The notes under the pieces were generated by a model. It searched no databases. It was not told where the DNA came from and saw nothing but the letters and a program-made list of their open reading frames with translations. Made by a program: the position numbers and the translations under genes. DNA of 64,000 nucleotides from an uncultured Gammaproteobacteria bacterium (GTDB lineage: Bacteria > Patescibacteriota > Patescibacteriia > UBA9934), in contig CAZKGL010000001.1 of the NCBI GenBank assembly GCA_964552565.1, positions 371,061-435,060 of the forward strand, given 5' to 3'. Every line of letters starts with the position of its first letter. The first letter of the stretch is position 1. This document shows, piece after piece, positions 36,415 through 59,515 of the stretch.

Positions 36415-36730
36415 TCCGGTCGCCCATGCGCGCCGCCGGGTCTTTTTCTTTCCAGAACGTGTGCACGAACACTGCGGCGCCGACCAAGAACATGACCAGG
36501 AGCGCGTAGGTGATCGCGATCTGCCACTGGAACAGGACGCCGATGCCGCCGATGACGAGCATTGCGCCCGTCACCGCGACCGAAAGCTTCGGTGCGGGAA
36601 GTTTCTTAAATGTCGCGTAGCCGACCGTCCCCGGGAACTGCGTGAAGTGCTTGACGCCGGAAACGATGAAGTAGATGCCCAGCACGATCTGCCCGATGAG
36701 GAAAAGCGTTTCCATATGCATGGTGTTCAT
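36350..36730 (-). CDS. DoxX-family membrane protein
   Basis: 126 aa with 4 TM helices; C-terminus NFEKNLALAAALLML. Convergent with the SET gene, overlapping it by ~65 nt. Confidence 0.75.
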   Translation of the reverse strand: MNTMHMETLFLIGQIVLGIYFIVSGVKHFTQFPGTVGYATFKKLPAPKLSVAVTGAMLVIGGIGVLFQWQIAITYALLVMFLVGAAVFVHTFWKEKDPAARMGDRINFEKNLALAAALLMLLASAS

Positions 36731-42707: not shown

Positions 42708-43295
42708 ATGATTGAGGGGTCTTTCAAGGGGGTCAAACAGGCACCCGGGTCTCATCAAAGTGAGACAAATGGGACGATACGTCAGGGGGTCACCACAAAC
42801 GAAAATAGCGGAAATAAAGGGGTTTTAATAAATTCCAATATGCGAACAGAAGACGAACAAAGTAGGACGCTCACAGACGAAGAGATCGGGGACTTTGTGA
42901 GGTTCTTCGAGTTGCTTGCTCAAGTCGATAGACGACTTAAGGGATGGAAAGAGCGTCTCAAGATTGAACCGGAAGGATTCCCGATTAACAATGGGATTTA
43001 CGATTGCAACCTGTGTTGCCGATCTATGAAGGATTACGAGGGTTGGTACGACCAGTACGGATTGAAATGTCCGTTATGCCGAAAGGCGGTCAATGACGGC
43101 ATCGTGCCGGGATCGGCAGTCCTCGATGATACGACGTGGTTTTCGGTGAGTCAGTTGTTGACGAAATACGGATGGCATCATACGACCGTACACAAAAAAG
43201 CGCGGAGCGGAGAGCTGAAGGCGAGAATCGTCAAAAACGTCGATGGCAGGCCATACTTCTACGTGTTCTTGAAGGAGGAGAATCCCGGCATTTAA
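42708..43295 (+). CDS. Hypothetical protein with a CxxC...CPxC ribbon and a C-terminal excisionase/MerR-like HTH
   Basis: The C-terminus WFSVSQLLTKYGWHHTTVHKKARSGELKARIVK resembles Xis-family HTH_17. The start is uncertain. Confidence 0.4.
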   Translation: MIEGSFKGVKQAPGSHQSETNGTIRQGVTTNENSGNKGVLINSNMRTEDEQSRTLTDEEIGDFVRFFELLAQVDRRLKGWKERLKIEPEGFPINNGIYDCNLCCRSMKDYEGWYDQYGLKCPLCRKAVNDGIVPGSAVLDDTTWFSVSQLLTKYGWHHTTVHKKARSGELKARIVKNVDGRPYFYVFLKEENPGI

Positions 43296-43510
43296 GACTT
43301 CATGGTTACGCTACTCAGGCTATTTGGAAGATTTGTTTTTAGGGGTATTTACAGCTTGCTTTGCAATATCAGTTCGACAAATCCCACGTTTAGCGCACGC
43401 ATCCTCACATTCCTGCGCATACTGCGCCTCAAGATACTGAAAGCCGCATTGCTCGCAGGTAAAAAGTGTCTTGTCGTCTTTCTCGACCGTTTTGACCATA
43501 GAGATGGCGA

Positions 43511-43960
43511 TTAGTTTCGAAGCGCTTCTCGTTCTCTGAGAAAGGCCATTTGCGCGTCTTGTAAATGCATAACCGGACGACGTTCTTTGAGATACGCGAC
43601 CGCTTCGTCGGCTGTCTTACCTTGCTCAGCGACAAGATAGGCGGCGACAAGCACAGGCGCTCTTCCATGTCCGTTTTTGCAATGGATGAAGCACGGGATA
43701 TTCTTCCCTGCAAAGAAGCGCAACGCTGCAACGCCGAGATCGGCTTTCTCGTGTGACATAGCAGCATGGTCTTCGGTTGGAAGCCAAAGGAAAAAGTCGA
43801 CGCCGTACGGTTGGTCGATCCGCTCCTTCTCAAGGCTGATGGCAGCGCGCACTCCTCGAGCGATTAATGTATCGTCGAAGTGCGTGACGCAACAGGCATT
43901 CTGACCAATGAAAATCAGTGGGGTTATTTCCGAGTAATCAAAAGATTCGTGAACATGCAT
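43511..43960 (-). CDS. Dual-specificity (Cys-based) protein phosphatase
   Basis: CX5R P-loop HCKNGHGRAP. 149 aa. Last gene of a 4-gene operon. Confidence 0.8.
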   Translation of the reverse strand: MHVHESFDYSEITPLIFIGQNACCVTHFDDTLIARGVRAAISLEKERIDQPYGVDFFLWLPTEDHAAMSHEKADLGVAALRFFAGKNIPCFIHCKNGHGRAPVLVAAYLVAEQGKTADEAVAYLKERRPVMHLQDAQMAFLREREALRN

Positions 43961-43968
43961 AACGTAGT

Positions 43969-44223
43969 TTATGAAGCAATCTTCGCTACTAGCTCTCCTC
44001 GTTGATGCAGGGCTACCACATCATCGTAACCTCCCACGAATTCGTCGCCAATAAAAATCATCGGCACCGTTCTCCAGTTGTATTTTTCGCTCAAAGCCTC
44101 CGCCTCTGCGGCATCTGCAGCAAGGTTCTTTTCCTCAAATGGCACCTTGAGCGAAGTAAAAAGTTGTTTTGCAAGCATGCAATATGCACATCCTGGCGAA
44201 GTGTAAATTGTTACTTGTTTCAT
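43969..44223 (-). CDS. Glutaredoxin
   Basis: 84 aa with a CAYC active site and a TVP...GGYDD glutathione-binding pattern. Its ATG overlaps the upstream TGA. Confidence 0.85.
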   Translation of the reverse strand: MKQVTIYTSPGCAYCMLAKQLFTSLKVPFEEKNLAADAAEAEALSEKYNWRTVPMIFIGDEFVGGYDDVVALHQRGELVAKIAS

Positions 44224-45611
44224 ACAATGGCTTTCACGCTATAAGCGGCGGCACCGACCCCTTCTGCAAATGTCGGATACGCATGAATCATTTTTGCGAT
44301 GGTCGTGTACGGAATATTCGCGAACATCGCGAGCGCAATCTCGTGGACAATCTCAGCCGCAGCCTGACCTACGACGTGGCCGCCGAGCACGTGACCACTT
44401 TCCATGTCGACGATAATTTTTACAAGCCCGTCAGATTCGCCCGTGACGAGCGCCTTGCCGAGCATGGCGTACGGAGCGGTACCGATACCGACTTTCTTGC
44501 CCAGCTTCATCGCTTCTGCTTCCGTCACGCCAACCGACCCAACCTCCGGGGTGCAAAATGTCCCTCGTGGAACAACGCGAAGGTCTGATTGCACAGTATT
44601 GCCTTTTGCTATGTTTGTCGCGGCAATGGTTCCTTGCTCGTGCGCGACGTGGGTGAACAGCATTTGGCCAGCCGCATCGCCCGCAAAGTAGACCGAAGCA
44701 TTGGATATCGACTGCATGAACTCATTCAGTTTTGGCCGACCGCGTTCGTCGAGTGCAATGCTGGCTTTTTCGGGCTCAAGGTCGGCAATGACTGGACGCT
44801 TTCCAACGGCCACGAGAACCGCATTCGCCACGAGCGTTTCGCGTCTCTTTTCAGATCCGAGCTCTATAGTGACACGACGCCCATCTTCGTCCGTTCCCAC
44901 ATCGACAGCCTGAGCTGTGGTAAAAATTTTTACGCCGCGCTTTGTGAAAGCCGCTGCGACAATGCCGGCAATTTCGTCATCTTCACGCGGCAAAATGTGC
45001 GGGGCGAATTCAACTATTGTTACAAGCACGCCAAGTTCCGAGAGGATCTGTGCGGATTCCACGCCGATCGGACCACCACCAATAATGATGATGGATTTCG
45101 GCAACTTTTTCAGCGTTACGATGTCGTCGCTTGTGAGAAAGCCAGACTCTTTCAATCCGGGAATGGGCGGAATTACCGTCTCGGATCCAGTAGCAATAAT
45201 AAAATGTTTTGCAGTAACCCGTTCCTTCCCGACAGCAAGCGTATCGGGTGAAATAAACTTCGCCTTTCCGCGCAAGAGATCGATGCTGAGTCTTTCGAGT
45301 ACGCCCTCGATACGTCCTTCGCCGGTCAACGCATCAACGATGCGAATTTTGCGTTCCATGATTTCGCGAAGACGAAACGAAACGCGCGGGATACGGAGGC
45401 CAAACTCCCCCGCACGGTGGGCGAGGGAGATGACTTCCGACGATCTCAATAATGCCTTTGTCGGCACACAGCCCCAGTTTGGGCATTCGCCGCCAAGACG
45501 CTTCGCGGCCTCAACGAGCGCGATACTCTTTACCCCTGCTTCGCGCGCGGTTTCTGCCGCGGAGAGACCAGCGGAACCGGAGCCGATGATGATGAGATCG
45601 TATGAGCGCAT
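44220..45611 (-). CDS. Class I pyridine nucleotide-disulfide oxidoreductase (Lpd/glutathione-reductase-like)
   Basis: FAD motif GSGSAG, redox-active CPNWGC, an NAD(P) GxGxxG motif and a C-terminal HAYPTFAE His-Glu dyad. There is no MerA CC tail. Confidence 0.85.
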   Translation of the reverse strand: MRSYDLIIIGSGSAGLSAAETAREAGVKSIALVEAAKRLGGECPNWGCVPTKALLRSSEVISLAHRAGEFGLRIPRVSFRLREIMERKIRIVDALTGEGRIEGVLERLSIDLLRGKAKFISPDTLAVGKERVTAKHFIIATGSETVIPPIPGLKESGFLTSDDIVTLKKLPKSIIIIGGGPIGVESAQILSELGVLVTIVEFAPHILPREDDEIAGIVAAAFTKRGVKIFTTAQAVDVGTDEDGRRVTIELGSEKRRETLVANAVLVAVGKRPVIADLEPEKASIALDERGRPKLNEFMQSISNASVYFAGDAAGQMLFTHVAHEQGTIAATNIAKGNTVQSDLRVVPRGTFCTPEVGSVGVTEAEAMKLGKKVGIGTAPYAMLGKALVTGESDGLVKIIVDMESGHVLGGHVVGQAAAEIVHEIALAMFANIPYTTIAKMIHAYPTFAEGVGAAAYSVKAIV

Positions 45612-45615
45612 ACCA

Positions 45616-45780
45616 CTACATTGCCGCGTGATCGTGCTGTACGCCTTCTGCGCACTTCTGGCAGGCCGCAGGAGCGGGGGCACTTTCCGCACCAGCACAC
45701 ATTGGACACATTTCAGCTTCGTTCTCTGGCTTTTGCGGTGCCGGAACCGCTCCGCCGCAGGCTGTACAAACTTTTCCCAT
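45616..45780 (-). CDS. Small Cys-rich protein (three CxxC pairs)
   Basis: MGKVCTACGG...CPMCAG...CQKCAEG. First gene of the operon; ends 4 nt before the reductase start. Confidence 0.4.
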   Translation of the reverse strand: MGKVCTACGGAVPAPQKPENEAEMCPMCAGAESAPAPAACQKCAEGVQHDHAAM

Positions 45781-45893
45781 AGAAAAGAAATAAAGAATCA
45801 ACAACGACAGTATATCGCTTTGCAAGAAATACGCTTGTAGCACAGGCTACAAAACATTGGCTCCGCTGTGGATGAGTGGTACTCTCTCAGCAT

Positions 45894-46556
45894 ATGGATC
45901 GTGTCTGGTACATCAAGAATTTCAATCTCTTCGCTGGTATTCCCAAGGAGGAAATCATGCGCATTGCTGCCTCCGCCAACGATGAGCGACATAACAGTCG
46001 TGCGCTGTTGTATACGCCGCACGACCAGGAAACACGGCTCTTTCTGGTAAAGGAGGGTGAGGTATCGCTGTACCACGTCAAGGATGGGAAGCGCTTTGTT
46101 TTTGACGTCATGGGTCCGGGGACATTGTTTGGCAATGTTGGTATGCAGGAAGGTTCACTTTCTCATTTTGCAGAAGCCGCCGAAGGCACCCGCATCTGCA
46201 CGTTTTCTTCGGCTGACTTTCAGCAGATTATTTCGGCATATCCCGTGGTCATGATGCGGGCGTTTTCGTCACTTGCACATCGACTGGAAGATTACGAAAC
46301 GAAACTCGGAGAGACGCTGTCGGACGCGAAAGAAAAGATTTTGCACGAAATTGAGCGATATGAACAAAAGCGCACACCAAAATTTCTTGAGTGGCTTTCG
46401 GGTGAGGCGACGAAGCGTCAACTTACGCACGAGCATCTCGCAAAATTAACCGGACTTAATCGAGTGACGGTTACGCGGGCAATTCATGATCTTCAGGCCG
46501 AGGGAGAGATTGACGTCGACGAGCACGGAAAAATTGTTATCCACAATAGTTTGTAG
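45894..46556 (+). CDS. Crp/Fnr-family transcriptional regulator
   Basis: cNMP-binding beta-roll followed by a C-terminal HTH (LTHEHLAKLTGLNRVTVTRAIHDLQ). No Fnr-type Cys cluster. Divergent from the Grx operon. Confidence 0.8.
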   Translation: MDRVWYIKNFNLFAGIPKEEIMRIAASANDERHNSRALLYTPHDQETRLFLVKEGEVSLYHVKDGKRFVFDVMGPGTLFGNVGMQEGSLSHFAEAAEGTRICTFSSADFQQIISAYPVVMMRAFSSLAHRLEDYETKLGETLSDAKEKILHEIERYEQKRTPKFLEWLSGEATKRQLTHEHLAKLTGLNRVTVTRAIHDLQAEGEIDVDEHGKIVIHNSL

Positions 46557-46603
46557 TATTTGTTACCGACATATATATGAGCATATCGCTATGATGTGCC
46601 CAT

Positions 46604-47086
46604 ATGAAAAATACTCTTTTTGCGATCGGAGGAATCATTGTCCTTATTGGGCTAGGATACGCAGTCTTTTCACGTCCGTCTGCTACAGACGTACCGCAAC
46701 CGGCTACGACGTCTGGCGTTGAAGCGTCGCCCACTGCGCCAACGGGCGAACAGGTCGTCTATGTAGCCGGGGCGTATCAGGATTTTTCGCAGACCGCGTA
46801 TGACTCCGCGCTTGCTGACGGCAAAACCGTTATTCTTGATTTTCACGCAGACTGGTGCCCAACGTGCCAAGTGAATGAGCCGATTATCAAGTCGGTATTT
46901 TCGACGAATACCGATACCAACATCGTCGGATTCAAAGTGAACTACGATACAGAGATCGGACTGAAGAAGGCGTTTAACATTCAGAGTCAGTCCACAATCA
47001 TTAAGACAGTAAAGGACGAGGCCGCAGAACAACTTGGCCCAGGTCCAGTAACAGCCGAAAGTTTCAGCGCATTTATCCAGTCCTAG
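46604..47086 (+). CDS. Membrane-anchored thioredoxin (TlpA/ResA-like)
   Basis: Signal anchor plus WCPTC. Confidence 0.8.
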   Translation: MKNTLFAIGGIIVLIGLGYAVFSRPSATDVPQPATTSGVEASPTAPTGEQVVYVAGAYQDFSQTAYDSALADGKTVILDFHADWCPTCQVNEPIIKSVFSTNTDTNIVGFKVNYDTEIGLKKAFNIQSQSTIIKTVKDEAAEQLGPGPVTAESFSAFIQS

Positions 47087-47090
47087 TAGT

Positions 47091-47795
47091 ATGGGGATGT
47101 TTTTATTGGCGCTTGTCGCCGGTGCTATCACCGTTACGTCACCGTGTATCATCCCCATTCTTCCGATTATTCTTGGGTCGGTACTGAAGGATCATAAGTG
47201 GTATCCCGTGTACCTCGTGCTCGGGATGTCGACGACGTTCACGGTGCTCGGCATCCTGTTTGGTGCCTTTGGTAGTGCACTTCCGATTGATCGCGTTTTC
47301 CTGAATCAACTCGCCATCTGGCTTATCGGCCTCATGGGAATTGTTCTCCTCGTAAAACCACTTGGCGATCTGTTCTCGCGTGGCACATCTATGCTCACGT
47401 CGTGGCTTGGCTCGTATGGTCCGAAAGCAAACCAGCTCGGACAGCCGGGTGAGGCCTTTGCGCTCGGATCGCTCCTTGGCATCGTCTGGGCACCGTGCGC
47501 CGGACCGATCCTCGGGTCAATCATTTTGCTCGCGTCGGGAACCGGAAGTGTCGTAAAGGCCGGACTACTGCTCTTCACGTACTCAATTGGCGCAGGGATC
47601 CCCATGCTCCTCATTGCCTACGGCGGGAAACGAGCAGTAGCGGGTAAACAGTTCATCCAAGAACAATCCGGCAGATTGAAAATGGCATTCGGTGTCGTCT
47701 TGCTTATCTCGGCACTCCTCATGGCAACGGGGGTGTTTCGCGAGCTGGAATCGCTCATCGTGCCGTATGTTCCCACGTGGAGCACGCAACTCTAA
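47091..47795 (+). CDS. ccdA: Cytochrome c biogenesis protein CcdA / DsbD-beta-domain electron transporter
   Basis: Six TM helices with the two conserved Cys (TSPCIIPILP; WAPCAGPILG). Confidence 0.85.
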   Translation: MGMFLLALVAGAITVTSPCIIPILPIILGSVLKDHKWYPVYLVLGMSTTFTVLGILFGAFGSALPIDRVFLNQLAIWLIGLMGIVLLVKPLGDLFSRGTSMLTSWLGSYGPKANQLGQPGEAFALGSLLGIVWAPCAGPILGSIILLASGTGSVVKAGLLLFTYSIGAGIPMLLIAYGGKRAVAGKQFIQEQSGRLKMAFGVVLLISALLMATGVFRELESLIVPYVPTWSTQL

Positions 47796-47816
47796 CATTT
47801 GAATGTCTATCACCCT

Positions 47817-48074
47817 ATGTCGCTACTCGAATTCTATGGCGCTGAATGCCCACATTGCATGGCGATGATGCCGCTCATTGAACGGTTGAAAAAAGAAGGC
47901 TTTGCCATTGAACAGTTTGAAACCTGGCATAACGAGGAAAACGCCAACAAGTTGAAGGAATACGACAAAGGTTTCTGCGGCGGCGTGCCGTTCTTCATAA
48001 ACACCGAAAGCGGAAAATGGATCTGCGGATCTGAATCCTATGAAGCGCTCCGAGCTTGGGCAGAAGGAAAATAG
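47817..48074 (+). CDS. Thioredoxin-fold protein with a CPHC motif
   Basis: The GAECPHC motif. Short, ~85 aa. Confidence 0.6.
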   Translation: MSLLEFYGAECPHCMAMMPLIERLKKEGFAIEQFETWHNEENANKLKEYDKGFCGGVPFFINTESGKWICGSESYEALRAWAEGK

Positions 48075-48441
48075 CAGCGCTAGGGAAATTCTTCGCATAA
48101 CGGGCATTCCCATTTTGCTTGCATCCCTGTGCTGCCTGAGTCCGGTTATCCTTGTGCTTTTAGGACTCACGACAACGACGTTTGCCGCTTCATTGTCCGA
48201 CACCCTTTACGGACAATATCGCTGGGTGTTCCGACTCGTGGGCTTCGTCGCACTTGCCGTATCGATTATCTGGCATCTGCGAAAGCGAAGGAAGATTTGC
48301 ACATTGGATCAGGCGAAGCGCCAGCGACACAAAATTGTTAACCTCATACTGCTCTCCGTTATCACCGCTATTCTTGGATATGTTTTCTGGCTCTACGTGG
48401 TCGTGGAATATATCGGCAAACTTCTCAATATTTGGAACTAA
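48040..48441 (+). CDS. Small membrane protein with vicinal Cys in TM1 (MerT/MerF-like)
   Basis: ILLASLCCLSPVILVLLG resembles the MerT CC helix. The start overlaps the previous gene by 35 nt. Confidence 0.4.
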   Translation: MKRSELGQKENSSAREILRITGIPILLASLCCLSPVILVLLGLTTTTFAASLSDTLYGQYRWVFRLVGFVALAVSIIWHLRKRRKICTLDQAKRQRHKIVNLILLSVITAILGYVFWLYVVVEYIGKLLNIWN

Positions 48442-48458
48442 TATAACCCCTTCAATCT

Positions 48459-49175
48459 ATGACAGAAAATACAACGCCGCCCGCTAGCTTCTTCAGTGGA
48501 AATCCTAAGATGATATTCGTTTTTGGTCTCGTGGCAGGCATCGCACTCACGTCCTTGGCCGGAGATCTGTTCGCGAATACTGGATCTGCAACCGGTACAG
48601 ACACCGCCGTCGTGAATGCGAACAATACCGGGCCATCTGCTGCGGCCTCCGCAAAAACGCTTGCCGCAGTAACGGAGGACGACCACGTACGAGGCGATCT
48701 TGAAAAAGCAAAGGTCGTGCTTATCGAGTACTCGGATTACGAGTGCCCTTTTTGCGGTAGGCACCATCCCACTATGCTCGATGTAGCAGAGCAATACGGC
48801 GACGATGTCGCTTGGGTGTATCGCCATTTTCCGCTCACGTCCATTCATCCGCAAGCAATGCCAGCAGCGCTCGCCGCCGAGTGTGCGAACGAACAAGGAA
48901 AGTTTTGGGAATATACGGATGCGCTCTTTGAAAACCAGAGCGATCTCAGCTCTTCATTTTATACCGAACTTGCTGGTGACCTTGGCATGAATACGTCAAA
49001 ATTCAGCGACTGCGTGGAAAGCGAGAAATATGCGGCGAGAGTAAAGGCCGATATCGCGTCAGGACAAGCCGCTGGTGCCACGGGCACGCCAGCAACATTC
49101 GTGAATGGCACGTTGGTGTCTGGCGCTGTACCGCTTTCGACATTCACAGGCCTTATAGACGCGGCACTCAAATAA
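48459..49175 (+). CDS. DsbA/BdbD-like thiol-disulfide oxidoreductase
   Basis: TM anchor, CPFC active site and the DSBA-fold cis-Pro region. Confidence 0.8.
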   Translation: MTENTTPPASFFSGNPKMIFVFGLVAGIALTSLAGDLFANTGSATGTDTAVVNANNTGPSAAASAKTLAAVTEDDHVRGDLEKAKVVLIEYSDYECPFCGRHHPTMLDVAEQYGDDVAWVYRHFPLTSIHPQAMPAALAAECANEQGKFWEYTDALFENQSDLSSSFYTELAGDLGMNTSKFSDCVESEKYAARVKADIASGQAAGATGTPATFVNGTLVSGAVPLSTFTGLIDAALK

Positions 49176-49257
49176 ACGAAAAATCGTTGCCGTGGTAGAA
49201 TTCACTCAAAGGTTCCTGACTTTTCAAAAATAATTAACTCATCACCTCACGAAAAAT

Positions 49258-49623
49258 ATGCAAATACTTTTCACCGTCGGTCACATCGTTCTCGGTCTGT
49301 TCTTCCTCATGATGGGCATGATGCACTTCATGAAGATGCGTGACATGACCGCGTATGCCAACATGAAGGGATTGCCAATGCCGTCGCTGTCCGTCGCGGT
49401 AACTGGAATGGTTCTTGCTCTTGGCGGCGCAGGAGTAATTTTTCAAGTCGCGCTCCCTTGGGCATACGGAGCACTGGTCGTATTCCTCGTATCAGCGGCA
49501 TTCCTCATGCATAACTTCTGGGCTGCCAAGGATGCACAGTCAAAGATGAACGACATGGTGAACTTCCAGAAAAATCTCGCCCTTGCCGCCGCCCTCTTGA
49601 TGCTCATCACGCTTCAAGCGTAA
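49258..49623 (+). CDS. DoxX-family membrane protein (island copy)
   Basis: 121 aa. Its C-terminus NFQKNLALAAALLMLITLQA is nearly identical to that of the core DoxX at 36350-36730. Confidence 0.8.
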   Translation: MQILFTVGHIVLGLFFLMMGMMHFMKMRDMTAYANMKGLPMPSLSVAVTGMVLALGGAGVIFQVALPWAYGALVVFLVSAAFLMHNFWAAKDAQSKMNDMVNFQKNLALAAALLMLITLQA

Positions 49624-49632
49624 TTCAATAGT

Positions 49633-50040
49633 GTGAGCAACCTCGTTTTTATTTATCAGGCAAACTCTGGCATTCTTGCGAATATACCGGGAGCCATCGC
49701 GAAAGCGTTTGGCGGAAAGAGCGTGTGTTCGCTGTGCAACATCACGAACGGCCCCTTTCGTGAAAAACCTGAATGGGAAACGTTCGTCGCGTCACTGCAA
49801 GAAAAGCCCGAGATCTATCACGCTAACGAAATACCGATTGACATTGCGTCATTCCTAAAAAAGAACGAGCACCCCATTCCCGTTGTCCTTGAGCGAAATG
49901 GATTTGAATTTACGGTCGCCATGTCTTCCGACGACCTCGATGCATGTCAGGCGGATCCCACCTGCCTCGCCAAGAAACTTACATCCTATACACGCACCTC
50001 GTGTAGCAATGGGGTGTGTTCGCTGAAACAGCCGAGTTGA
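49633..50040 (+). CDS. Hypothetical CxxC protein (possible thioredoxin-fold)
   Basis: GTG start and a CSLC motif. 135 aa. Confidence 0.4.
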   Translation: MSNLVFIYQANSGILANIPGAIAKAFGGKSVCSLCNITNGPFREKPEWETFVASLQEKPEIYHANEIPIDIASFLKKNEHPIPVVLERNGFEFTVAMSSDDLDACQADPTCLAKKLTSYTRTSCSNGVCSLKQPS

Positions 50041-50242
50041 GCTCAGAAAATATGATAGGAAGAATATTAGAAGTTTCCGGTGAGCTTTGCATCGGTTATC
50101 TCGCCACACGAGTGCACAGCCGCGTCGTGAAGGAACATCGCATTGATGCTGCTGTTCTTCGTGAAATGAAAATGGAAAAACATGTAGGAACGGTCGGGAT
50201 GGCACTTATCCTTGTTGGATTTATTTTAGAATCACAAGGAAT

Positions 50243-51592
50243 ATGATTTTACAAAATTGGTGGTACACAACCTTATTGGACGCATCGGTGCGCCACCAGC
50301 CGCCTTTGCGTGGTGCGCTCAAGTGCGACGTTGCGGTTATCGGCGGCGGCATGGCAGGACTCCACGCGGCGCTCCAGCTGAGCCGGATGGGTAAAAAAGT
50401 AATCCTTCTCGAACGAAACATTTGTGGCGGAAGTTCCACAGGAAAAAGCGCAGGGTTTCTTACGCCAGATAGCGAGCTCGAACTCAGCCAACTTGTCAGA
50501 AGATACGGCGTAGACGGTGCAAAAACTGTCTGGAATATGCCCGTGCAAGGCGTCAAACTTATCAAGCAGACGATCAACGATTTTAATATTGCGTGCGATT
50601 TTCGCAAACAAGATAGTCTATTCGTCGGTATTGGTAAGAGTGGCGCCGAGGACGTCGCGAGTGAGGCAAAATCAAGAAAGAGATTGGGATTTGCCTCCAC
50701 AAAGTACAACAAAGACGAGCTCAAAAAGGTGAACGCAGGGCTTGGCTACGAGGCGGGTATCAGATACGACGATACCTATTCCATAAACCCGCTGCTCTAC
50801 GCGCAGGGTTTGAAGCAAGCGTTAATGGACAGCGGCGTACAGATTTTTGAAAGCACCGAGGTGGTGCGCATTGAAGACGGGGCTGCGATTACCCATCTTG
50901 GATCCGTCATGGCGGATAATTTTATCGTTTGCATCGACAAAATGAAGTCGGAATTCAGTTCCGTCGCGAAGCAGACCTATCATGCTCAAACATTTCTTTC
51001 CATTAGCGAACCGCTAGACGACAACGATATTGCAGCAATATTCCCGGATGGCGAAGTGCAGTGTTGGGATTCACGACTTGTCTACAGCTATTATCGACTG
51101 ACACCCGATAAGCGGCTGTTGCTCGGCGGCGGGAGCGCGCTAACGACTTTTTCTCCTAACGATATAAATTCCCCGGCCATCATCAATCAGGTGATCGCGG
51201 ACTTCAAAAAAAGGTTTCCAAAGCTGGAACACGTCGCATTTGTTCAGTACTGGCCTGGGCGCATCGATACCACGAAGGACATCATGCCAATCATCGATTG
51301 GTTTGACGCGCCGAACGTTCAGTATGTTTTGGGCTGTGTCGGTTTGCCGTGGGCAAGTTTTTGCGGAAAGTATGCCGCAGAGCGTCTGTATGAACCACGC
51401 ATCTGTCAAAAGTACTGCATGTATCTCGGTGCTCATCGCTCATTTTTCATCCCGCCATGGCTTCAGAGTATCGTTGGTAAAATGATCAGTTTTTCTCTCA
51501 ACAATGCGTACGCCAAATACTTCGAGAAGGATAGGCCTCAAATGAGCCAGATCATGCATGCCCACAAAGGCGAGCTTCCTTCCCATCGATAA
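50243..51592 (+). CDS. FAD-dependent oxidoreductase (DAO family)
   Basis: N-terminal VAVIGGGMAGLHAALQL Rossmann motif. 449 aa. Confidence 0.8.
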   Translation: MILQNWWYTTLLDASVRHQPPLRGALKCDVAVIGGGMAGLHAALQLSRMGKKVILLERNICGGSSTGKSAGFLTPDSELELSQLVRRYGVDGAKTVWNMPVQGVKLIKQTINDFNIACDFRKQDSLFVGIGKSGAEDVASEAKSRKRLGFASTKYNKDELKKVNAGLGYEAGIRYDDTYSINPLLYAQGLKQALMDSGVQIFESTEVVRIEDGAAITHLGSVMADNFIVCIDKMKSEFSSVAKQTYHAQTFLSISEPLDDNDIAAIFPDGEVQCWDSRLVYSYYRLTPDKRLLLGGGSALTTFSPNDINSPAIINQVIADFKKRFPKLEHVAFVQYWPGRIDTTKDIMPIIDWFDAPNVQYVLGCVGLPWASFCGKYAAERLYEPRICQKYCMYLGAHRSFFIPPWLQSIVGKMISFSLNNAYAKYFEKDRPQMSQIMHAHKGELPSHR

Positions 51593-51595
51593 TAG

Positions 51596-51967
51596 CTAGA
51601 CGATAATTTTCAATTCGAGTTCTATCGTATCCTCTGCGAGAACATGCTCTTTCTTACGTATGCCAGATTTGAGTGGGAGCACATAGCTTCCTAACTTCGA
51701 GTCTGGAAAAATTGACGTCTTCCAGAGTGTTTTCCCGAGCGTCATTTCAACACGAATCGATCCCCATCCTTTTTTCAGTGGCGAAAACCGCGTTTTGATC
51801 TCGCGCGATATCTTTTTTGGCAGAGTAACAAAATGCCATCCGGCCATGCCGGGATACAACCATACTTTCGCTCGAAACGAATAATTTGTTTTCATAGACC
51901 CGGTTGTTTGAGAAAAATCCGACGGTTTTGCGTCCTGGGTGGTTCCGCTTTCTGGATCGAATGCCAA
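51596..51967 (-). CDS. DUF1905-like small protein
   Basis: AKVWLYPGMAGWHFVTLP...GWGSIRV pattern; family recalled from memory. Confidence 0.45.
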   Translation of the reverse strand: MAFDPESGTTQDAKPSDFSQTTGSMKTNYSFRAKVWLYPGMAGWHFVTLPKKISREIKTRFSPLKKGWGSIRVEMTLGKTLWKTSIFPDSKLGSYVLPLKSGIRKKEHVLAEDTIELELKIIV

Positions 51968-52150: not shown

Positions 52151-55100
52151 CTACTGCAACTCGCCACCCGCCTTGAAGGATCTAATGTCTGCAGCCACGC
52201 GGCGCAGGTGTACGGGCAGTAACCGCATCCGAATCGCGAGAAGTGATACAGCGATCTCGATCGCCTTATTCGCTTGCGGATGCCTACCAATGTACCGAAG
52301 AAGGCTATGCAGTATTCCTCGCTCCCTAATGCCAAGACGCTTGTCCGTATAGATATACATTATCAAATCGCCAAGTATCGTCCCGATCGGCTGGACGGAG
52401 GTCTCCTTCTTCACCAACTCATTCATCAATAGCTCAACATTTTGGTCAAGCAGATTGAAGTTCGCAACTTCGAGATAGCGAACAATCATTGCGGTGTCAA
52501 TCGTTACATACGAATATCCGCACTTCAACAATTCCATTCTCCCGGCGTCATACTCCTCCTCAGACACCAGATTATGTTTACGCGCATTTCGAAGAAGTTC
52601 CTGACTTGTTGCAATGTCGAGACCCCCCAATGTTTTTATTGCATCACGGCCGAGGTACGAATCGTCACACACTACAGGTAGCCCTCTCTGTGAAGCAATT
52701 ACCATAGTCGTGCCCGATGATCCGTACTGCTCCTCAAACTGCTTCCTATCAGGAGAAACTGGACGTGCGTAGCCGACTCGTGTACAGGTCTCAAAGAAAG
52801 CTTGCACCTTTGTCAGAAGCTGCAGACTTTTCTCGTACGCCTCGGCGCTGACATCATTCATCATGACTGAGCCGTCGGCGCTGCCCTGTAGAAAAGATTG
52901 CCCTTTCTTAGAAAGCTTCGTGTACTCCTCGATTAGAGAGGAGAGCTGATCGCAAGTAAACTGATCAACATACACTTGCGTAAATGCCTTCTTTATCAAA
53001 TCCAAACGATCGAGGCGCGCCAATGTCAGAGCGGCACTCATGTCTACGATCACCTCTTTTTCCTTAAAAAGGATATTCTCACTTTCCGCAGCCTCTTGCG
53101 TATTTCCGAGGAAGGCATAAACCGGGAAGTCTTTCGCGGTTATCACATCGGACCACACCTCGAAATACTTCTTGGAGATGAGAGTTGAGATCTGATTCAA
53201 GGATAGGCGCTTGGCCTTATACTCCGCGATGACTTTATCGATCGCCTTGGCCCTTGCTGAGACCACCTCACCGATTTTCTTCATTCCATCTTGATCGGCT
53301 GAAAACTTCATGATCGCCTCTTGTCCCGGGGCGCGATTCTCGAAATTTTCCATTATGTCCTGATAGTACCTGACGTGCTTATCCTGAACAGCACCTTCCT
53401 GATCACTTACATGGTGAAAGACAGAGATGTACGCCAACTGAATCTCAGGGTTAGTGAAGTTTCTATCCAAAGCACTGAAGGCTGTTTCAAGTGCTTCGGC
53501 ATATTCGCCATTCAAGACAAGAAGGTTCGCAACTTGCATGAGTTGCTCCGCTTCGCTCGCCGAGTGCAACGCCTTCTTGATGTAAGGTGAATAATCTGCG
53601 ATAGACCCCGAAAGTCTAAATCTGCACTCAAGGAAGCCTATAACATCACCGAAAACGAAGTGATCCTCATCTATTAACTTTTTGTATTTCTCTGCTGCGG
53701 TCTCAAGGTCTCCAAGTACATGGGTGAAGTTCGCCGAAACCCGGAGAAGAGTGTCGGATTGAAGCGCCTTTTCGCTAGCCAAAACCATCAGAGCTTGCAA
53801 CTGTTCATACTTCTTTGCGTTGAATAGAGCAATTGCATATCTTTCAAAATTTTCTGCCGACGGATCTCCCTCGATAGCCAAGGCTAAAATTTCTGCGGCC
53901 TTCTCAAAATCTCCTATCTTCAAGAGAAAGGTTGAGTAATCATCGAGAATTATTTGATGAATTGGATTTGCCTCTACGGCCGCGTCCATCGCACGCTCGA
54001 AGTATTCTCCTGAAAGTTCGAGCTGATTTTGGTGCGCATGAAATATGGCAACCGATCTAAACGCCAAAGGATTGTCCGGGCATTCGGCGAGCAACTCATC
54101 TCTAACCTTTAGAGCCTTATCGGTCTCTTGGAGATCCAAATGGCCTAACATCAACAATCGCATCGTTTCAATATAAACCTCATCTCGATCGTCGCTCCTA
54201 TTCCCAGACAACAGTTCGACTGTCTTGCCCGGCTTCTTGCTGAAGAGGTACGCGGCCGCCAAATCCCTCCTCAAGTGATCTGGTAACGTGGTAATTTTTG
54301 AATACGCCTCTAACGCTTCGATCACGTATTCGTAACGATGGGAGATAAGACCCGCTCTCGACTTATTCACCAACGCCTCTATATTTTCGGCATCAAGTGA
54401 AAAGGCCCGATTAGCATATTCGATGCAGTCGTCATATTGTTTAAGAACCAAGTTGGCGGCCGATAGGTTGGTATAGAGGGGTGCCTCAAACTGTTTTGGC
54501 GCTTGCCCCTCAAACAACTTTACAGCCTCGGTCAAAGCCTTTTTCGCTTCTTCAAAATCCTTACAGATTGCATCCGGGATAATCGCGCCTTGTAATCTTC
54601 CTTCAAGATCCCTCGAGTGAAGCAGTAAAATTTCTTGAGCGAAAAACAATTTATACCAAACCTCCTTATCATCGCTTTCCTTGAGTTTTTTATATGCATC
54701 AGCTGCGCCCTTGTGGTCACGCAACTTACTCGCCTTCAGCGCGAAAATAAAGTCTTTGGTTGCTTGATTTTCAATGTCAGCAATGTCCCGATCAACTGCA
54801 TCGATGTCATTCAAGTCAAGATGGCAACGCGCGCGAATAGACAAGGCATGATCTCTATCCTGTAGATCTCTCGCTAGTACCATGTTAATCATTCCGAGAG
54901 CAGTTCCCGGATCCTTGGCGGCCAAGAATGCCTGTGCGTGGTTTGCGCCCGCCTTCTCATTTTCCGAATCAAGTGCGATTGCTTTTTCAAATAACAATTT
55001 AGCTTTATCCGTTTCGCCAAGCCGCAATTCGCATAGTCCAAGATTGTTATGAATCTTGGACATAGTCTTCTTGCCGACTCCACCGGCAGTCGGAAGATCC

Positions 55101-55771
55101 GCAAGAATATCGTACCCATCGCGGCGGGCGCCCGTGTAATCTCCCTCATCTATTTTCTTGACCATCCGCTTGTTTCTTGCATCGAATAGACCCGAAAGTT
55201 CCCCACTCTCTATTACAGAAGATTGCAAAGAGGCGACAGCTGCCTGAAGCGCCGCAAGCTGTTGCTGTGTTGTTTCAAAGATATCCGGATGACGTTCCTT
55301 TACTGTCGGATGCTGATCTGCCAGTTGCCTCAAATGCTCAGCGGAGTACACGAGGTATTTGCAGTTGTTCTCTCGTGTCAGCTCTGCAAGAACATCGTGC
55401 TGCTCCTTACGCAGTGCGGCAGGGGTAACAAACACCCAAGTATCAAACGGGTACATCCCACGTTGTTCGATCGCCTTACTGAAATCAGAACGAATTTTCT
55501 TGTTGTAAGCATCGTTCGACGACCGGGTACTCAAAAGCGGAGTATAAATTGCGAAAAAAATCTTGGCTGATGTTGTGTACCCATCCATCCCATCATCGCC
55601 ACCCCTGTCGTCAATAACAAGAAAATCTTGATGCTCCGCGAGCAAGAGATCTTTGACTAACGCTTCAAATACTTTGTTGTTGTCAATGTGCTCGATTTTC
55701 TTCGTGTACTTATATGCGTCACTATCCGGCATATTCTTATCGTAAGGAAGAACCCTGCCGACATGAAACAC
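52151..55771 (-). CDS. 1206-aa TPR-repeat array protein with an N-terminal Mrr/restriction-endonuclease-like domain
   Basis: More than 900 aa of TPR-like helical repeats. The N-terminus FEALVKDLLLAEHQDFLVIDDRGGDDGMDGY resembles the Mrr_cat signature. Low GC. Confidence 0.75.
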   Translation of the reverse strand: MFHVGRVLPYDKNMPDSDAYKYTKKIEHIDNNKVFEALVKDLLLAEHQDFLVIDDRGGDDGMDGYTTSAKIFFAIYTPLLSTRSSNDAYNKKIRSDFSKAIEQRGMYPFDTWVFVTPAALRKEQHDVLAELTRENNCKYLVYSAEHLRQLADQHPTVKERHPDIFETTQQQLAALQAAVASLQSSVIESGELSGLFDARNKRMVKKIDEGDYTGARRDGYDILADLPTAGGVGKKTMSKIHNNLGLCELRLGETDKAKLLFEKAIALDSENEKAGANHAQAFLAAKDPGTALGMINMVLARDLQDRDHALSIRARCHLDLNDIDAVDRDIADIENQATKDFIFALKASKLRDHKGAADAYKKLKESDDKEVWYKLFFAQEILLLHSRDLEGRLQGAIIPDAICKDFEEAKKALTEAVKLFEGQAPKQFEAPLYTNLSAANLVLKQYDDCIEYANRAFSLDAENIEALVNKSRAGLISHRYEYVIEALEAYSKITTLPDHLRRDLAAAYLFSKKPGKTVELLSGNRSDDRDEVYIETMRLLMLGHLDLQETDKALKVRDELLAECPDNPLAFRSVAIFHAHQNQLELSGEYFERAMDAAVEANPIHQIILDDYSTFLLKIGDFEKAAEILALAIEGDPSAENFERYAIALFNAKKYEQLQALMVLASEKALQSDTLLRVSANFTHVLGDLETAAEKYKKLIDEDHFVFGDVIGFLECRFRLSGSIADYSPYIKKALHSASEAEQLMQVANLLVLNGEYAEALETAFSALDRNFTNPEIQLAYISVFHHVSDQEGAVQDKHVRYYQDIMENFENRAPGQEAIMKFSADQDGMKKIGEVVSARAKAIDKVIAEYKAKRLSLNQISTLISKKYFEVWSDVITAKDFPVYAFLGNTQEAAESENILFKEKEVIVDMSAALTLARLDRLDLIKKAFTQVYVDQFTCDQLSSLIEEYTKLSKKGQSFLQGSADGSVMMNDVSAEAYEKSLQLLTKVQAFFETCTRVGYARPVSPDRKQFEEQYGSSGTTMVIASQRGLPVVCDDSYLGRDAIKTLGGLDIATSQELLRNARKHNLVSEEEYDAGRMELLKCGYSYVTIDTAMIVRYLEVANFNLLDQNVELLMNELVKKETSVQPIGTILGDLIMYIYTDKRLGIRERGILHSLLRYIGRHPQANKAIEIAVSLLAIRMRLLPVHLRRVAADIRSFKAGGELQ

Positions 55772-55802: not shown

Positions 55803-56177
55803 TTACTGCTTGACGATTGCAATCCCCGTCGCCCTATCCCAATAGAATCCAAAGACAAGCATTGCTAAGAACCCGATACCTGTAACAGCAGACAATGCGA
55901 TGATTTCGCGTAGGACGAGACGAAGTAGTGTCGGTCTCGCAAGCGTCTTGCGATCTACTGTGCGCAATTTAAAGAGCCTCTGACCGGGCGTTGCGCCTGA
56001 GTAAGCTGCGAGAGCTAAGCCTGCTAACAAAGCGACCAGAAAAGGCCACATCGCTCGGGACAACGCTTCGTGAAGCAGCGCATCAAAAAGGGCGACCGCC
56101 GTGCCGATGACAAAAAAGTCAATCATGAGAGCCGTGCCGCGCTTAAAATGACCATATTCAAAAATTACTTCGGACAT
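55803..56177 (-). CDS. RDD-family membrane protein
   Basis: 124 aa with 3 TM helices and an RDD-like pattern. Confidence 0.55.
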   Translation of the reverse strand: MSEVIFEYGHFKRGTALMIDFFVIGTAVALFDALLHEALSRAMWPFLVALLAGLALAAYSGATPGQRLFKLRTVDRKTLARPTLLRLVLREIIALSAVTGIGFLAMLVFGFYWDRATGIAIVKQ

Positions 56178-57895: not shown

Positions 57896-59515
57896 ATGCA
57901 ATCAGCCGTTGTCATTTACGCCCGCAAGTCGAGCGAACAAGAGGATCGTCAGATCTTGAGTATCGATTCTCAGATCGCCGAGCTTAAGCAACTTGCCCTG
58001 AAGTTTGAGGTAACCCCGAAGTACGTTATTAGCGAATCCTTCAGCGCAAAGGCTCCCGGTCGAGAAAAGTTCAACGAGATGGTTGCTCTTATTGAGGCTG
58101 GAAAAGTAGACACGATTTTTGCTTGGCATCCCGATCGTCTGTCTCGCAATGCAGTAGACGCTGCGTGGCTTATTCACCTTCTTGATACTGGTAAGCTCAA
58201 AGCAATCATCACGCCGAGCCAATCTTTCAAAAATACTCCGAACGATAAGTTTCTTTTCAACCTCCTCACCAGTCAGGCGAAGCTTGAAAACGACAACAAG
58301 AGTATCAACGTAAAACGAGGGTTGAAGACTAAAGTCGAGATGGGCTGCTACCCCGGTGTTGCTCCGCTTGGCTATCTGAACAACAAGTACAAGGAGAAGG
58401 GTAAGAAGGACGTTTATCTCGATGCTGAACGTGGCCCGATCCTCCGCAAGATCTTCGACCTAATTCTTGAAGGCATGCCTCCCATGCGAGCCTTGGAAAT
58501 CGCAAATGAAAAGCTTGACTTCCGCACCCCTCACGGAAATAAGCTCGCACGTACGACACTCTACCGTGTTCTCACGATGCCCTTTTATTACGGTGAGTTC
58601 GAATACCCGAAAGGTAGTGGCAAATGGTACAAGGGCAACCACGAACCCCTGATCACAGTTGAGGAATACGACCGAGTTCAAACTTTTCTTGGACGAGACG
58701 GTAGACCACGGGCGCGCCAGAGCCTCTATAACTTCCCCTACAAGGCGATGATGCGCTGCGGGGAGTGTGGCGCCGCTATTACCATTGAGCGCAAGGTAAA
58801 GCGTCAGAAGAATGGTAATGTCCACGAGTACGTCTATTATCACTGTACGAAGCGCATTAAAAGGGACTGCACGCAGAAATGCGTCGAGGCAAAAGAGATT
58901 GATGACCAGATCGCCGAGACCTTGGCTTCCGTGAAGATCCCTCAGGAGTTCCATGAATGGGCCATTGAGGCGTTACGCGAGGAAAATGAAGCCGAGACCT
59001 CGTCACGCGCGCAGACTATGAAACGCCAACGCTCCTCATATGACGAGACGGTTCGGATGATGGATGAGCTGCTCGATATGCGCCTCAAGAAACAGATCTC
59101 CGATGAGCAGTTCGCTGACAAGAAGGCATCCTTGGAACACGATAAAACGCGCTATAAGGAGCTTCTCAACGATACCGACCGTAGGATCGACTGGTGGATG
59201 AATGTCGCGGGGGAGGCCATGCAATTCCTTTGTGAAGCCCAACAGAAATTTATCGAAGGCGACGCAGACCGAAAGACCCGCATTCTGAACGCCCTTGGTT
59301 CGAACTTCACCCTTCTCGACGGAAAACTAGTCGTTTCTGTGAAGGAAACGCTTCTTTCGGTTACCGAGCAATATCACCAGATGAAACAGGCTGGAAAAAT
59401 GTTCGAACCTCTGAAATTTGGCTCTACAAAACAAAGAACCGACACCATTTCTGATGTCAGTTCCATGTGGCTCCGGGGGTGGGGTTCGAACCCACGACCA
59501 TCTCGTTACACTTGA
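57896..59515 (+). CDS. Large serine recombinase (integrase)
   Basis: Resolvase catalytic region YARKSSEQEDRQ...SIDSQ, a recombinase domain, a zinc ribbon CGECG...HCTKRIKRDC and a coiled coil. 539 aa. Confidence 0.9.
   Translation: MQSAVVIYARKSSEQEDRQILSIDSQIAELKQLALKFEVTPKYVISESFSAKAPGREKFNEMVALIEAGKVDTIFAWHPDRLSRNAVDAAWLIHLLDTGKLKAIITPSQSFKNTPNDKFLFNLLTSQAKLENDNKSINVKRGLKTKVEMGCYPGVAPLGYLNNKYKEKGKKDVYLDAERGPILRKIFDLILEGMPPMRALEIANEKLDFRTPHGNKLARTTLYRVLTMPFYYGEFEYPKGSGKWYKGNHEPLITVEEYDRVQTFLGRDGRPRARQSLYNFPYKAMMRCGECGAAITIERKVKRQKNGNVHEYVYYHCTKRIKRDCTQKCVEAKEIDDQIAETLASVKIPQEFHEWAIEALREENEAETSSRAQTMKRQRSSYDETVRMMDELLDMRLKKQISDEQFADKKASLEHDKTRYKELLNDTDRRIDWWMNVAGEAMQFLCEAQQKFIEGDADRKTRILNALGSNFTLLDGKLVVSVKETLLSVTEQYHQMKQAGKMFEPLKFGSTKQRTDTISDVSSMWLRGWGSNPRPSRYT
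59468..59510 (-). tRNA. tRNA 3' exon-like half (anticodon-stem 3' strand, variable loop, T-arm GTGGGTTCGAACCCCAC, acceptor CCCCGGA-G-CCA)
   Basis: The reverse complement reads tgtaacgagatggtcgtgggttcgaaccccacccccggagcca. It pairs with the 5' half at 60056-60087. Confidence 0.5.

Follow-up and report, generated by a model that had tools for sequence, protein, structure and literature searches.

Among the closest described relatives of the gene cluster analyzed here are the CcdA-Etrx-MsrAB2 surface repair system of Streptococcus pneumoniae (PMC3914529) and ScsABCD, the suppressor of copper sensitivity (Scs) system of Salmonella and its relatives, an acquired, accessory locus (PMC10907172). The cluster lies in a 64 kb stretch of chromosomal DNA (hereafter the window) from a Candidatus Uhrbacteria bacterium, a member of the Candidate Phyla Radiation (CPR, or Patescibacteria). 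It consists of a co-directional row of genes at positions 46604-51592, a Crp/Fnr-family regulator gene upstream of the row and an operon that diverges from it (Table 1). With moderate confidence, its sequence can be read as that of an island-borne, modular thiol-redox cluster, net reducing, that would protect or repair cell-surface proteins. The cluster is probably not an oxidative-folding machine.

As in CcdA-Etrx-MsrAB2 and in the pathways that lead from CcdA or DsbD to ResA or TlpA, a minimal CcdA with six transmembrane (TM) segments adjoins a surface-exposed thioredoxin-fold protein, and the same families lie by an anchored MsrA-MsrB in related Patescibacteria loci. Unlike the pneumococcal system, the window carries no MsrAB, its electron input is apparently a dedicated flavoprotein resembling lipoamide dehydrogenase (LipDH) and MerA together with glutaredoxin (Grx) or a small thioredoxin (Trx85) in place of TrxB/TrxA, and it has a MerT-like protein, DoxX, a protein with a CSLC motif (CSLC), a small membrane protein (small64) and a DAO-family oxidoreductase as extra members. 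Scs likewise unites an electron transporter in the membrane, a DsbA-like protein and a membrane-bound thioredoxin in one locus, and ScsC structures count among the solved relatives closest to the DsbA-like protein of the window. In contrast to Scs, the transporter of the window is a bare CcdA of 234 amino acids (aa) in which the ScsB periplasmic domains are lacking, a homologue of ScsA was not identified, and the host belongs to the monoderm-like CPR bacteria. The cluster lacks both the MsrAB client and the ScsB architecture and is for this reason not counted as a member of either system. The idea of ScsA as a DoxX protein was dropped, as the Scs literature that was found does not mention DoxX.

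In the proposed route, NAD(P)H would reduce the flavoprotein encoded in the divergent operon, and the flavoprotein would reduce a cytoplasmic carrier, either Grx, Trx85 or both. The carrier would reduce CcdA in the membrane, and CcdA would in turn reduce the outward, anchored thioredoxin with the WCPTC motif (Trx160), which would serve surface clients. The anchored DsbA-like protein is probably one of these clients and would work, as ScsC does, as a reductase or isomerase. The MerT-like protein may be a second conduit or a metal hand-off for the cysteine enzymes outside, and DoxX, CSLC and small64 with its dehydrogenase may form an accessory, membrane-associated redox module.

CPR bacteria are ultra-small, mostly uncultured and thought to be largely episymbiotic and reliant on surface proteins. 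To our knowledge, the upkeep of surface cysteines and methionines in these organisms with reduced metabolism has been little explored. The locus is real and unusually dense in thiol-redox genes, and together with its relatives it outlines a lineage-typical thiol toolkit that can move on an island and is composed of CcdA, thioredoxins with an anchor, a membrane protein derived from MerT, DoxX and two families that no database describes. Its novel ingredients are the MsrAB-tied CPR family of MerT-like proteins, the putative CSLC thioredoxin-fold family and small64; otherwise, it is akin to known extracytoplasmic reducing systems.

Gene content and mosaic structure

Domain calls were made with Pfam and NCBIfam model searches and their cut-offs, and topology was predicted from hydropathy and the distribution of lysine and arginine (K/R, positive-inside). 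Related loci are numbered L001, L002 and so on; L001 is a Logan contig identical to the window, on which an independent gene caller returned the same genes. An initial reading of the DNA (the first-pass annotation) had described a self-contained, extracytoplasmic operon of ten co-directional genes at 46604-51592. The co-directional row is borne out, although it holds nine open reading frames (ORFs), the tenth gene being the Crp/Fnr regulator upstream. Its tight spacing on one strand is confirmed as well: the gaps from the regulator to the DAO gene are 47, 4, 21, -35, 17, 82, 9, 11 and -4 nt (range -35 to 82 nt), and the intergenic gaps of the row contain no terminator-like sites or hairpins. 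The unit extends beyond these positions to the divergent operon at 43511-45780, where the genes for the presumed cytoplasmic electron input lie.

Most of the first labels stand after the domain searches (thioredoxin, CcdA, CPHC thioredoxin-like, MerT-like, DsbA-like, DoxX and DAO). The label 'TlpA-like' is loose for Trx160, which best matches the plain Thioredoxin model and scores 15.6 bits with the TlpA equivalog against a cut-off of 230. 'Extracytoplasmic' fits Trx160 and the DsbA-like protein, whose CxxC motifs are predicted outside, but not the CPHC protein (Trx85), CSLC or DAO, which have no membrane segment or signal. A cytoplasmic location of motif-bearing cysteines had been named at the outset as evidence against the original reading, and this is what is predicted for the CPHC and CSLC proteins. 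The whole locus encodes five thioredoxin-fold proteins (Trx160, Trx85, the DsbA-like protein, Grx and, as a putative member, CSLC), of which two are predicted outward and three inside. Overall, the first-pass observation and interpretation are each upheld in part: the gene content was right, whereas the gene count and the extracytoplasmic label were not, and an oxidising branch (discussed below) is not supported.

Table 1. Features of the cluster and its island, by position in the window
Feature	Position	Strand	Match or basis
Cys-based dual-specificity-type phosphatase, HCX5R and CC at residues 23-24; last gene of divergent operon	43511-43960	-	Pfam DSPc 48.6 bits
Glutaredoxin (Grx, CAYC), predicted cytoplasmic, no TM	43969-44223	-	Pfam Glutaredoxin 68.8 bits; NCBIfam GRX_bact 73 bits
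Class-I flavoprotein disulfide-reductase homologue, CPNWGC	44220-45611	-	Pyr_redox_2 215 bits, Pyr_redox_dim 104 bits
Cys-rich 54-aa ORF, three CxxC and His-rich tail; first gene of divergent operon	45616-45780	-	translation
Perfect palindrome TGTAGC-N4-GCTACA in divergent promoter region, candidate operator	45836-45851	.	sole match in window
Crp/Fnr-family regulator (cNMP-binding and HTH)	45876-46556	+	cNMP_binding 46 bits, HTH_Crp_2 37 bits
Trx160, membrane-anchored thioredoxin (WCPTC), domain predicted outside	46604-47086	+	Thioredoxin 44 bits
CcdA-type six-TM thiol-disulfide transporter, 234 aa	47091-47795	+	DsbD_TM PF02683 66 bits (cut-off 27)
Trx85, small thioredoxin-like protein, predicted cytoplasmic, no TM	47817-48074, or 47799 from TTG start	+	
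MerT-like three-TM protein	48040-48441	+	Pfam MerT 34.8 bits (gathering cut-off 32.9); NCBIfam equivalog NF010314 35 (cut-off 150)
DsbA-like protein, membrane-anchored, CPFC with Cys142 and Cys185, domain predicted outside	48459-49175	+	Thioredoxin_4 96 bits, DSBA 72 bits
DoxX-family protein, four TM, no cysteine	49258-49623	+	DoxX 29.9 bits
CSLC protein, predicted cytoplasmic, no membrane segment	49633-50040	+	no Pfam or NCBIfam match
small64, small two-helix membrane protein; stop overlaps DAO start by 4 nt	50052-50246	+	no Pfam or NCBIfam match
DAO-family FAD oxidoreductase, predicted cytoplasmic, no TM	50243-51592	+	DAO 160 bits; far below all NCBIfam cut-offs
Large serine recombinase, right edge of low-GC island	57896-59515	+	Resolvase, Recombinase and Zn_ribbon_recom domains

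Parts of the row are syntenic elsewhere, in support of the first-pass annotation, but the cluster is a mosaic of separately occurring modules that recur across Patescibacteria and not a fixed ten-gene operon. DNA alignment together with gene maps of related contigs delimits a block A (43348-48077) that contains the phosphatase, Grx and flavoprotein genes, the divergent Crp gene, and the genes for Trx160, CcdA and Trx85. This block is present in a groundwater locus (L088) as one stretch of DNA with 77-82% identity that ends exactly after Trx85, the CPHC gene. L002 and L003 carry block A followed by CSLC and then the DsbA-like gene, with no MerT-like, DoxX or DAO gene. Another Uhrbacteria genome (L004) has CSLC, small64 and DAO only, and L005-L007 have the 3' end of the DsbA-like gene (L005), DoxX, one extra gene, CSLC, small64 and DAO. 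Because these blocks occur separately in related contigs, the row of the window can be divided into five modules: the divergent operon with Crp, Trx160, CcdA and Trx85 (A), the MerT-like gene (B), the DsbA-like gene (C), DoxX (D), and CSLC, small64 and DAO (E).

In distant Patescibacteria, the same families cluster again at 19-65% identity and with a different gene order. In L112, about 17 genes form a supercluster on a single strand (L112:420-10621), with ArsR, Grx, CcdA, a TlpA-like thioredoxin, a MerT-like protein, DUF3179, a membrane protein, CSLC, DoxX, TrxB, a DsrE-like protein, Trx85, a Cys/His-rich peptide, an FMN reductase, small64 and a fusion of glucose-6-phosphate and 6-phosphogluconate dehydrogenases (G6PD-6PGD). 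Since this fusion is joined to redox genes, NADPH generation is encoded there with the thiol machinery. L142 comprises ArsR, Grx, a DsbA-like protein, DUF3179, DoxX, the thioredoxin-like DUF2703, TrxB and Trx85; L078 comprises ArsR, Grx, FMN reductase, MerT-like and DsbA-like genes. Smaller groups are found in L166 (thioredoxin, CSLC, small64 and G6PD-6PGD) and L131 (MerT-like and CSLC), and loci of Peregrinibacteria carry Crp, a gene without assignment, Trx160, CcdA, DUF3179 and the MerT-like gene. The recurring companions of these families are reductases and suppliers of NADPH. Neither DsbB nor VKOR was seen among the annotated genes of the distant loci, where no search was aimed at them.

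This recurrence makes it very unlikely that the locus is no single system and that independent redox genes were accidentally juxtaposed by recombination on the island. Such an origin would fit the blocks that end at gene boundaries and occur separately (L088 stopping after Trx85, L004 with the CSLC-small64-DAO group only, L002 with another order), the mostly housekeeping context of Trx85 and the 82-nt gap before DoxX. Against it stand the co-clustering of the same families at low identity in lineages as distant as those of L112, L142, L166, L131 and L078, the overlapping starts and stops within the row and the lack of terminator-like sites between its genes.

The CcdA relay and the MerT-like family

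The core of the proposed reducing relay is the adjacent pair of Trx160 and CcdA. Trx160 has an N-terminal TM segment at residues 4-22 and its active-site cysteines at positions 85 and 88. CcdA has six hydrophobic segments with Cys19 (SPC) in TM1 and Cys136 (APC) in TM4, the features expected of a CcdA/DsbD transporter, and the 90% cluster that contains it bears the name 'CcdA family protein [Patescibacteria group bacterium]'. These genes support the first-pass description of a dedicated thiol-disulfide cluster with a reducing relay from CcdA to an anchored thioredoxin.

Trx85 has four cysteines that are invariant in its family alignment: the CPHC pair, one before GGVP and one in WICG. The family consists of 140 clusters from CPR and, in several entries, from Aenigmarchaeota (DPANN archaea). 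At 80 metagenome loci (L088-L167), its usual neighbours are rpsT, ruvA and the genes for pyruvate dehydrogenase E1/E2, commonly with rpsT/ruvA on one side and the dehydrogenase genes on the other, and Trx85 looks like a general cytoplasmic redox carrier. Its use as a cluster-specific marker was rejected, given the housekeeping neighbours at most of these loci.

The divergent operon encodes the candidate reductant of this carrier. The flavoprotein ORF is readable up to 45698, with a likely start at Met30 (45611). It is closest to LipDH and MerA, but falls below every NCBIfam cut-off (LipDH TIGR01350 382 vs 409; MerA TIGR02053 359 vs 454); its nearest solved structure is the LipDH E3 2eq6. Its HAYPT motif (HAYPTFAE) aligns with HAHPT of several LipDH structures and thus has tyrosine for the catalytic histidine. 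MerA has the same change of histidine to tyrosine. The flavoprotein ends in AAAYSVKAIV with no cysteine pair and does not qualify as a MerA. It also lacks the His-Glu dyad of disulfide reductases of the LipDH and glutathione reductase type, as well as a score above their equivalog cut-offs, and an assignment as lipoamide dehydrogenase was rejected for want of the catalytic histidine. The start of the Grx gene overlaps the flavoprotein stop by 4 nt.

A Cys-rich, unannotated-looking ORF lies 4 nt upstream of the position at which the flavoprotein likely starts. Gene calling in L003 gives a 55-aa gene at this place, and the alignment displays coding-like conservation. A different Cys/His-rich peptide, of 81 aa, is found in L112, L166, L113 and L105. 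At the other end of the operon, the phosphatase is 83% identical in L088, within the DNA block common to that locus and the window. Phosphatase homologues (47-49% identity) come directly after Trx85, about 365 nt downstream, in three unrelated metagenome contigs (L101, L110 and L137), an arrangement that hints at a thioredoxin-coupled activity, for example one like that of an arsenate reductase.

The start of the MerT-like gene overlaps Trx85 by 35 nt. The predicted protein has its N-terminus inside, a vicinal cysteine pair (CC31-32) in TM1 and a single Cys87 in a K/R-rich cytoplasmic loop. The motif ASLCCLSP with the TM1 pair is invariant across 30 family members, in agreement with MerT. Cys87 is likewise invariant and is the single cysteine of its loop, whereas MerT of Tn501 has a second cysteine pair in the cytoplasmic loop that joins TM2 to TM3. 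The family is CPR-wide and highly conserved, with 367 clusters and at least 182 loci in species-representative genomes. Genes for MsrA/B are located within 2.5 kb of the MerT-like gene at 38 of 80 loci and directly adjacent to it (150 nt or less) at 34 of the 80, as a separate anchored MsrAB. In four species-level genomes, the MerT-like protein forms the N-terminus of in-frame fusions with MsrA-MsrB of 421-440 aa (L011:1134-2411, L012:7992-9257, L018:7992-9269 and L033:7992-9314); because three TM helices precede them, the Msr domains of these fusions would lie outside. The gene for DUF3179, with a CPLC motif in the two members read, adjoins the MerT-like gene at six further loci, and a DsbA-like gene does so at one (L078).

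From these neighbours, we infer that the MerT-like protein serves outward cysteine enzymes, either as a second transmembrane thiol relay or by handing off a soft metal. A more specific proposal is tentative and, in our estimate, somewhat unlikely: the family would be not a mercury transporter but a new minimal transmembrane thiol relay, passing electrons from a small cytoplasmic thioredoxin or glutaredoxin (here Trx85) to outward cysteine enzymes, which would be MsrA-MsrB in most lineages and DUF3179 or DsbA-like proteins in others, as in the window. The island would then carry two parallel conduits, CcdA and the MerT-like protein, together with a CSLC family that works with DoxX. If the MerT-like protein is indeed an electron or thiol conduit for MsrAB, it would join DsbD/CcdA and MsrQ as a third kind of reductant transporter across the membrane and would illustrate the re-use of a metal-transport scaffold; if not, the locus is a composite but otherwise ordinary envelope redox locus. 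A profile search returned no solved structure for the family, and the AlphaFold2 (AF2) model (pTM 0.41) is too uncertain to judge the proximity of the cysteines to one another. A literature search on MerT together with MsrAB, or on Patescibacteria with thioredoxin and Msr, found nothing relevant.

The same family raises the question of metal detoxification, which the first-pass annotation had offered as one function of the cluster and which survives as a minority reading. In a defence island against soft metals (Hg, Cu or similar) or thiol-reactive toxicants, the MerT-like protein would move the metal across the membrane, the Cys-rich peptide, Grx and Trx85 would hold it, the MerA-like flavoprotein would reduce it, and the outside thioredoxin and DsbA-like protein would repair cysteines damaged by the metal, as in Scs. 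In favour of this reading, the MerT-like protein scores above the Pfam cut-off for MerT and has a TM1 motif like that of MerT; the flavoprotein has a CxxxxC site as in MerA and the MerA-like tyrosine, and is preceded by the peptide with three CxxC motifs. Related clusters include ArsR-family regulators and small Cys/His-rich proteins, and the solved relatives of the DsbA-like protein include the copper-binding ScsC (PMC10907172). A MerA-type gene with a CVNVGC site next to the MerT-like gene was confirmed at three of the 80 loci, all from Peregrinibacteria, not every neighbour having been scored (L062:8395-9798, L008:8395-9798 and L059:384-1787, all on the minus strand). It is convergent to the MerT-like gene, 38 nt apart in L062 and L008, and comes after the row of Crp, Trx, CcdA, DUF3179 and MerT-like genes; the L062 protein reaches 509 bits with TIGR02053 (cut-off 454), and those of L062 and L059 end in SCCV.

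Several features nevertheless make such a defence unlikely for the window. The window lacks MerA, as its flavoprotein misses both the cut-off and the C-terminal cysteine pair, and among the island genes scanned there is no MerP or MerR. The MerT-like protein falls short of the NCBIfam MerT equivalog (35 vs 150), has one loop cysteine in place of a pair and lies outside a mer operon context. Its family occurs at its many loci mostly alone or with MsrAB, which would be odd for a mercury importer, and the regulator of the window is of the Crp/Fnr type. Because the MerA and MerT equivalog and cysteine-pair tests fail and MerP and MerR are missing among the genes scanned, the cluster is not a mer operon.

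The DsbA-like protein, DoxX and the accessory module

The nearest solved relatives of the DsbA-like protein are 3gyk, Corynebacterium diphtheriae DsbA (4pwo), ScsC (6nen, 4xvw and 4gxz) and BdbD (3eu3). DoxX, encoded immediately downstream, lies beside or near CSLC or another thioredoxin-like gene in L005-L007, L112 and L142. In other bacteria, DoxX has been linked to thiol homeostasis and to envelope oxidative-stress regulons (PMC7907618), and a DoxX-SseA-SodA complex of Mycobacterium tuberculosis is cited in the same source.

An exhaustive profile search for CSLC returned 450 representatives at 50% identity. In the family alignment, the CxLC motif is invariant and Tyr8, Trp48, His63 and Pro83 are present in at least 90% of members, and none of the 56 members scanned reached a Pfam family. 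The AF2 model follows the thioredoxin order of elements (beta-alpha-beta-alpha-beta-beta-alpha) at low confidence (pLDDT 63, pTM 0.61), and the top Foldseek matches are all thioredoxins, with weak E-values of 0.016-0.1. CSLC is predicted to be a thioredoxin-fold family that is undescribed in Pfam. A placement as a relative of DCC/DUF393 or DUF2703 was set aside, as none of the members scanned reaches any Pfam family.

Homologues of small64 are encoded directly upstream of DAO in L001 and L004-L007, and of the G6PD-6PGD fusion in L112, L166 and L105. The small64 gene always precedes, and often overlaps, a gene for a large soluble dehydrogenase, which is DAO in the clade of the window and G6PD-6PGD elsewhere. 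DAO itself is a distant family member; among solved structures, only glycine oxidase (1ryi) matches it over the full length, and weakly so. Because small64 always precedes such a soluble dehydrogenase, DAO would more likely provide an input or a side activity than an electron sink for DsbA.

This bears on the oxidising branch proposed in the first-pass annotation, in which DsbA and DoxX work without DsbB or VKOR and the FAD oxidase or DoxX may act as the sink. In its full form, a reducing relay would coexist with a true oxidising branch: the DsbA-like protein would form disulfides in secreted proteins and be re-oxidised via DoxX and/or the FAD oxidase, ultimately by O2, in replacement of DsbB/VKOR in an organism without quinones. 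The DsbA-like protein is indeed anchored outside and resembles the oxidases DsbA/MdbA of C. diphtheriae and BdbD of Bacillus subtilis. The missing partner is borne out within the 64 kb window, where apart from CcdA and the MerT-like protein there is no multi-TM ORF with CxxC, and hence none like DsbB or VKOR. The genes for the DsbA-like protein and DoxX adjoin each other in the window and in L005, and a DoxX-family membrane protein is likewise encoded beside a DsbA-like CxxC protein (a thiol-disulfide oxidoreductase) in class I lasso-peptide clusters, where a role of these pairs (SviE/SviF and AboE/AboF) in disulfide formation has been proposed (PMC9266682, PMC6409603).

The branch is nonetheless decidedly unlikely. 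DoxX of the window has no cysteine, and DAO and CSLC, predicted cytoplasmic and without membrane segment or signal, could not touch the outside DsbA directly. DAO is absent from the related clusters L002, L003, L088 and L112, and of the loci that retain a DsbA-like gene, L002, L003, L078 and L142 have no DAO; in L002, L078 and L111, the DsbA-like gene does not adjoin DoxX. In other lineages, CSLC and small64 sit with TrxB and the G6PD-6PGD fusion, that is, with suppliers of reductant, and the recurrent partners (Grx, TrxB, CcdA and MsrAB) all belong to reduction or repair. Unlike the lasso-peptide pairs, the window offers no context of peptides that are made on ribosomes and modified after translation (RiPPs), and even in those clusters SviF is dispensable and the function of DoxX is called ambiguous.

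The net reducing cluster with surface clients is the preferred reading, and a number of observations weigh against it. The flavoprotein has neither the catalytic histidine (tyrosine instead, as in MerA) nor a C-terminal redox centre for protein substrates, and its reduction of Grx or Trx85 is for this reason doubtful and the weakest step of the route. The window encodes neither MsrAB (tblastn for MsrA/B, best E = 0.2) nor any other obvious client, and the DsbA-like protein is equally close to ScsC, a reductase/isomerase, and to the oxidases MdbA and BdbD. The MerA-type neighbour at three Peregrinibacteria loci speaks against a purely redox role of the MerT-like protein, 35 of its 80 loci have none of the partners discussed here nearby, and most Trx85 loci are likewise without any of these redox partners. 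The CSLC-small64-DAO trio is confined to a narrow clade (at least 61% identity), and because of this its link to the remaining genes may be mere inheritance. The structure models of CSLC and of the MerT-like protein are both of low confidence, and the direction of electron flow is itself inferred from sequence.

Regulator, island and neighbouring genes

The Crp/Fnr regulator gene keeps its position in L002, L003 and L088, and the Peregrinibacteria loci contain homologues of it. The palindrome in the divergent promoter region is likely the operator of this regulator, and through it the regulator probably controls both divergent operons. The position of the palindrome is conserved in L088 and L002, both of the related contigs that cover the region. 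The palindrome is absent from the Peregrinibacteria locus L062, which confines the idea of an operator to three closely related loci.

Housekeeping genes for PBP2, an AddA-like helicase, the F-ATPase alpha and beta subunits, MetRS and leucyl aminopeptidase occupy the flanks of the window. The GC profile falls from 0.62-0.65 in these flanks to 0.45-0.53 between about 42.2 and 59.8 kb. Because of this drop and the large serine recombinase at the right edge, the first-pass placement of the row on an island is a fair label, and the stretch looks horizontally mobile. A database look-up of the recombinase returned no record. No long, att-like direct repeats were found to bound the island, which is not unexpected for a serine recombinase.

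The other genes of the island include, at its left edge, a 195-aa ORF (42708-43295, plus strand) that has CNLCC and CPLC motifs but matches no family. The middle of the island encodes a 1206-aa TPR protein with a PIN domain ('PIN-TPR-GreABC' type; 52151-55771, minus strand) and an RDD-family membrane protein (55803-56177, minus strand); a 1254-aa ORF occupies the same relative position as the TPR protein in L088. A DUF1905 gene (51596-51967, minus strand) is convergent to DAO, and its homologues adjoin or neighbour MerT-like or Trx85 genes in L013, L068, L016, L023, L072 and L128. Outside the island, the host chromosome encodes a DoxX paralogue (36350-36730, minus strand) and a DUF3179 protein (24108-25319, minus strand), the latter from the family that adjoins the MerT-like gene in the Peregrinibacteria loci and L112 and is also present in L142.

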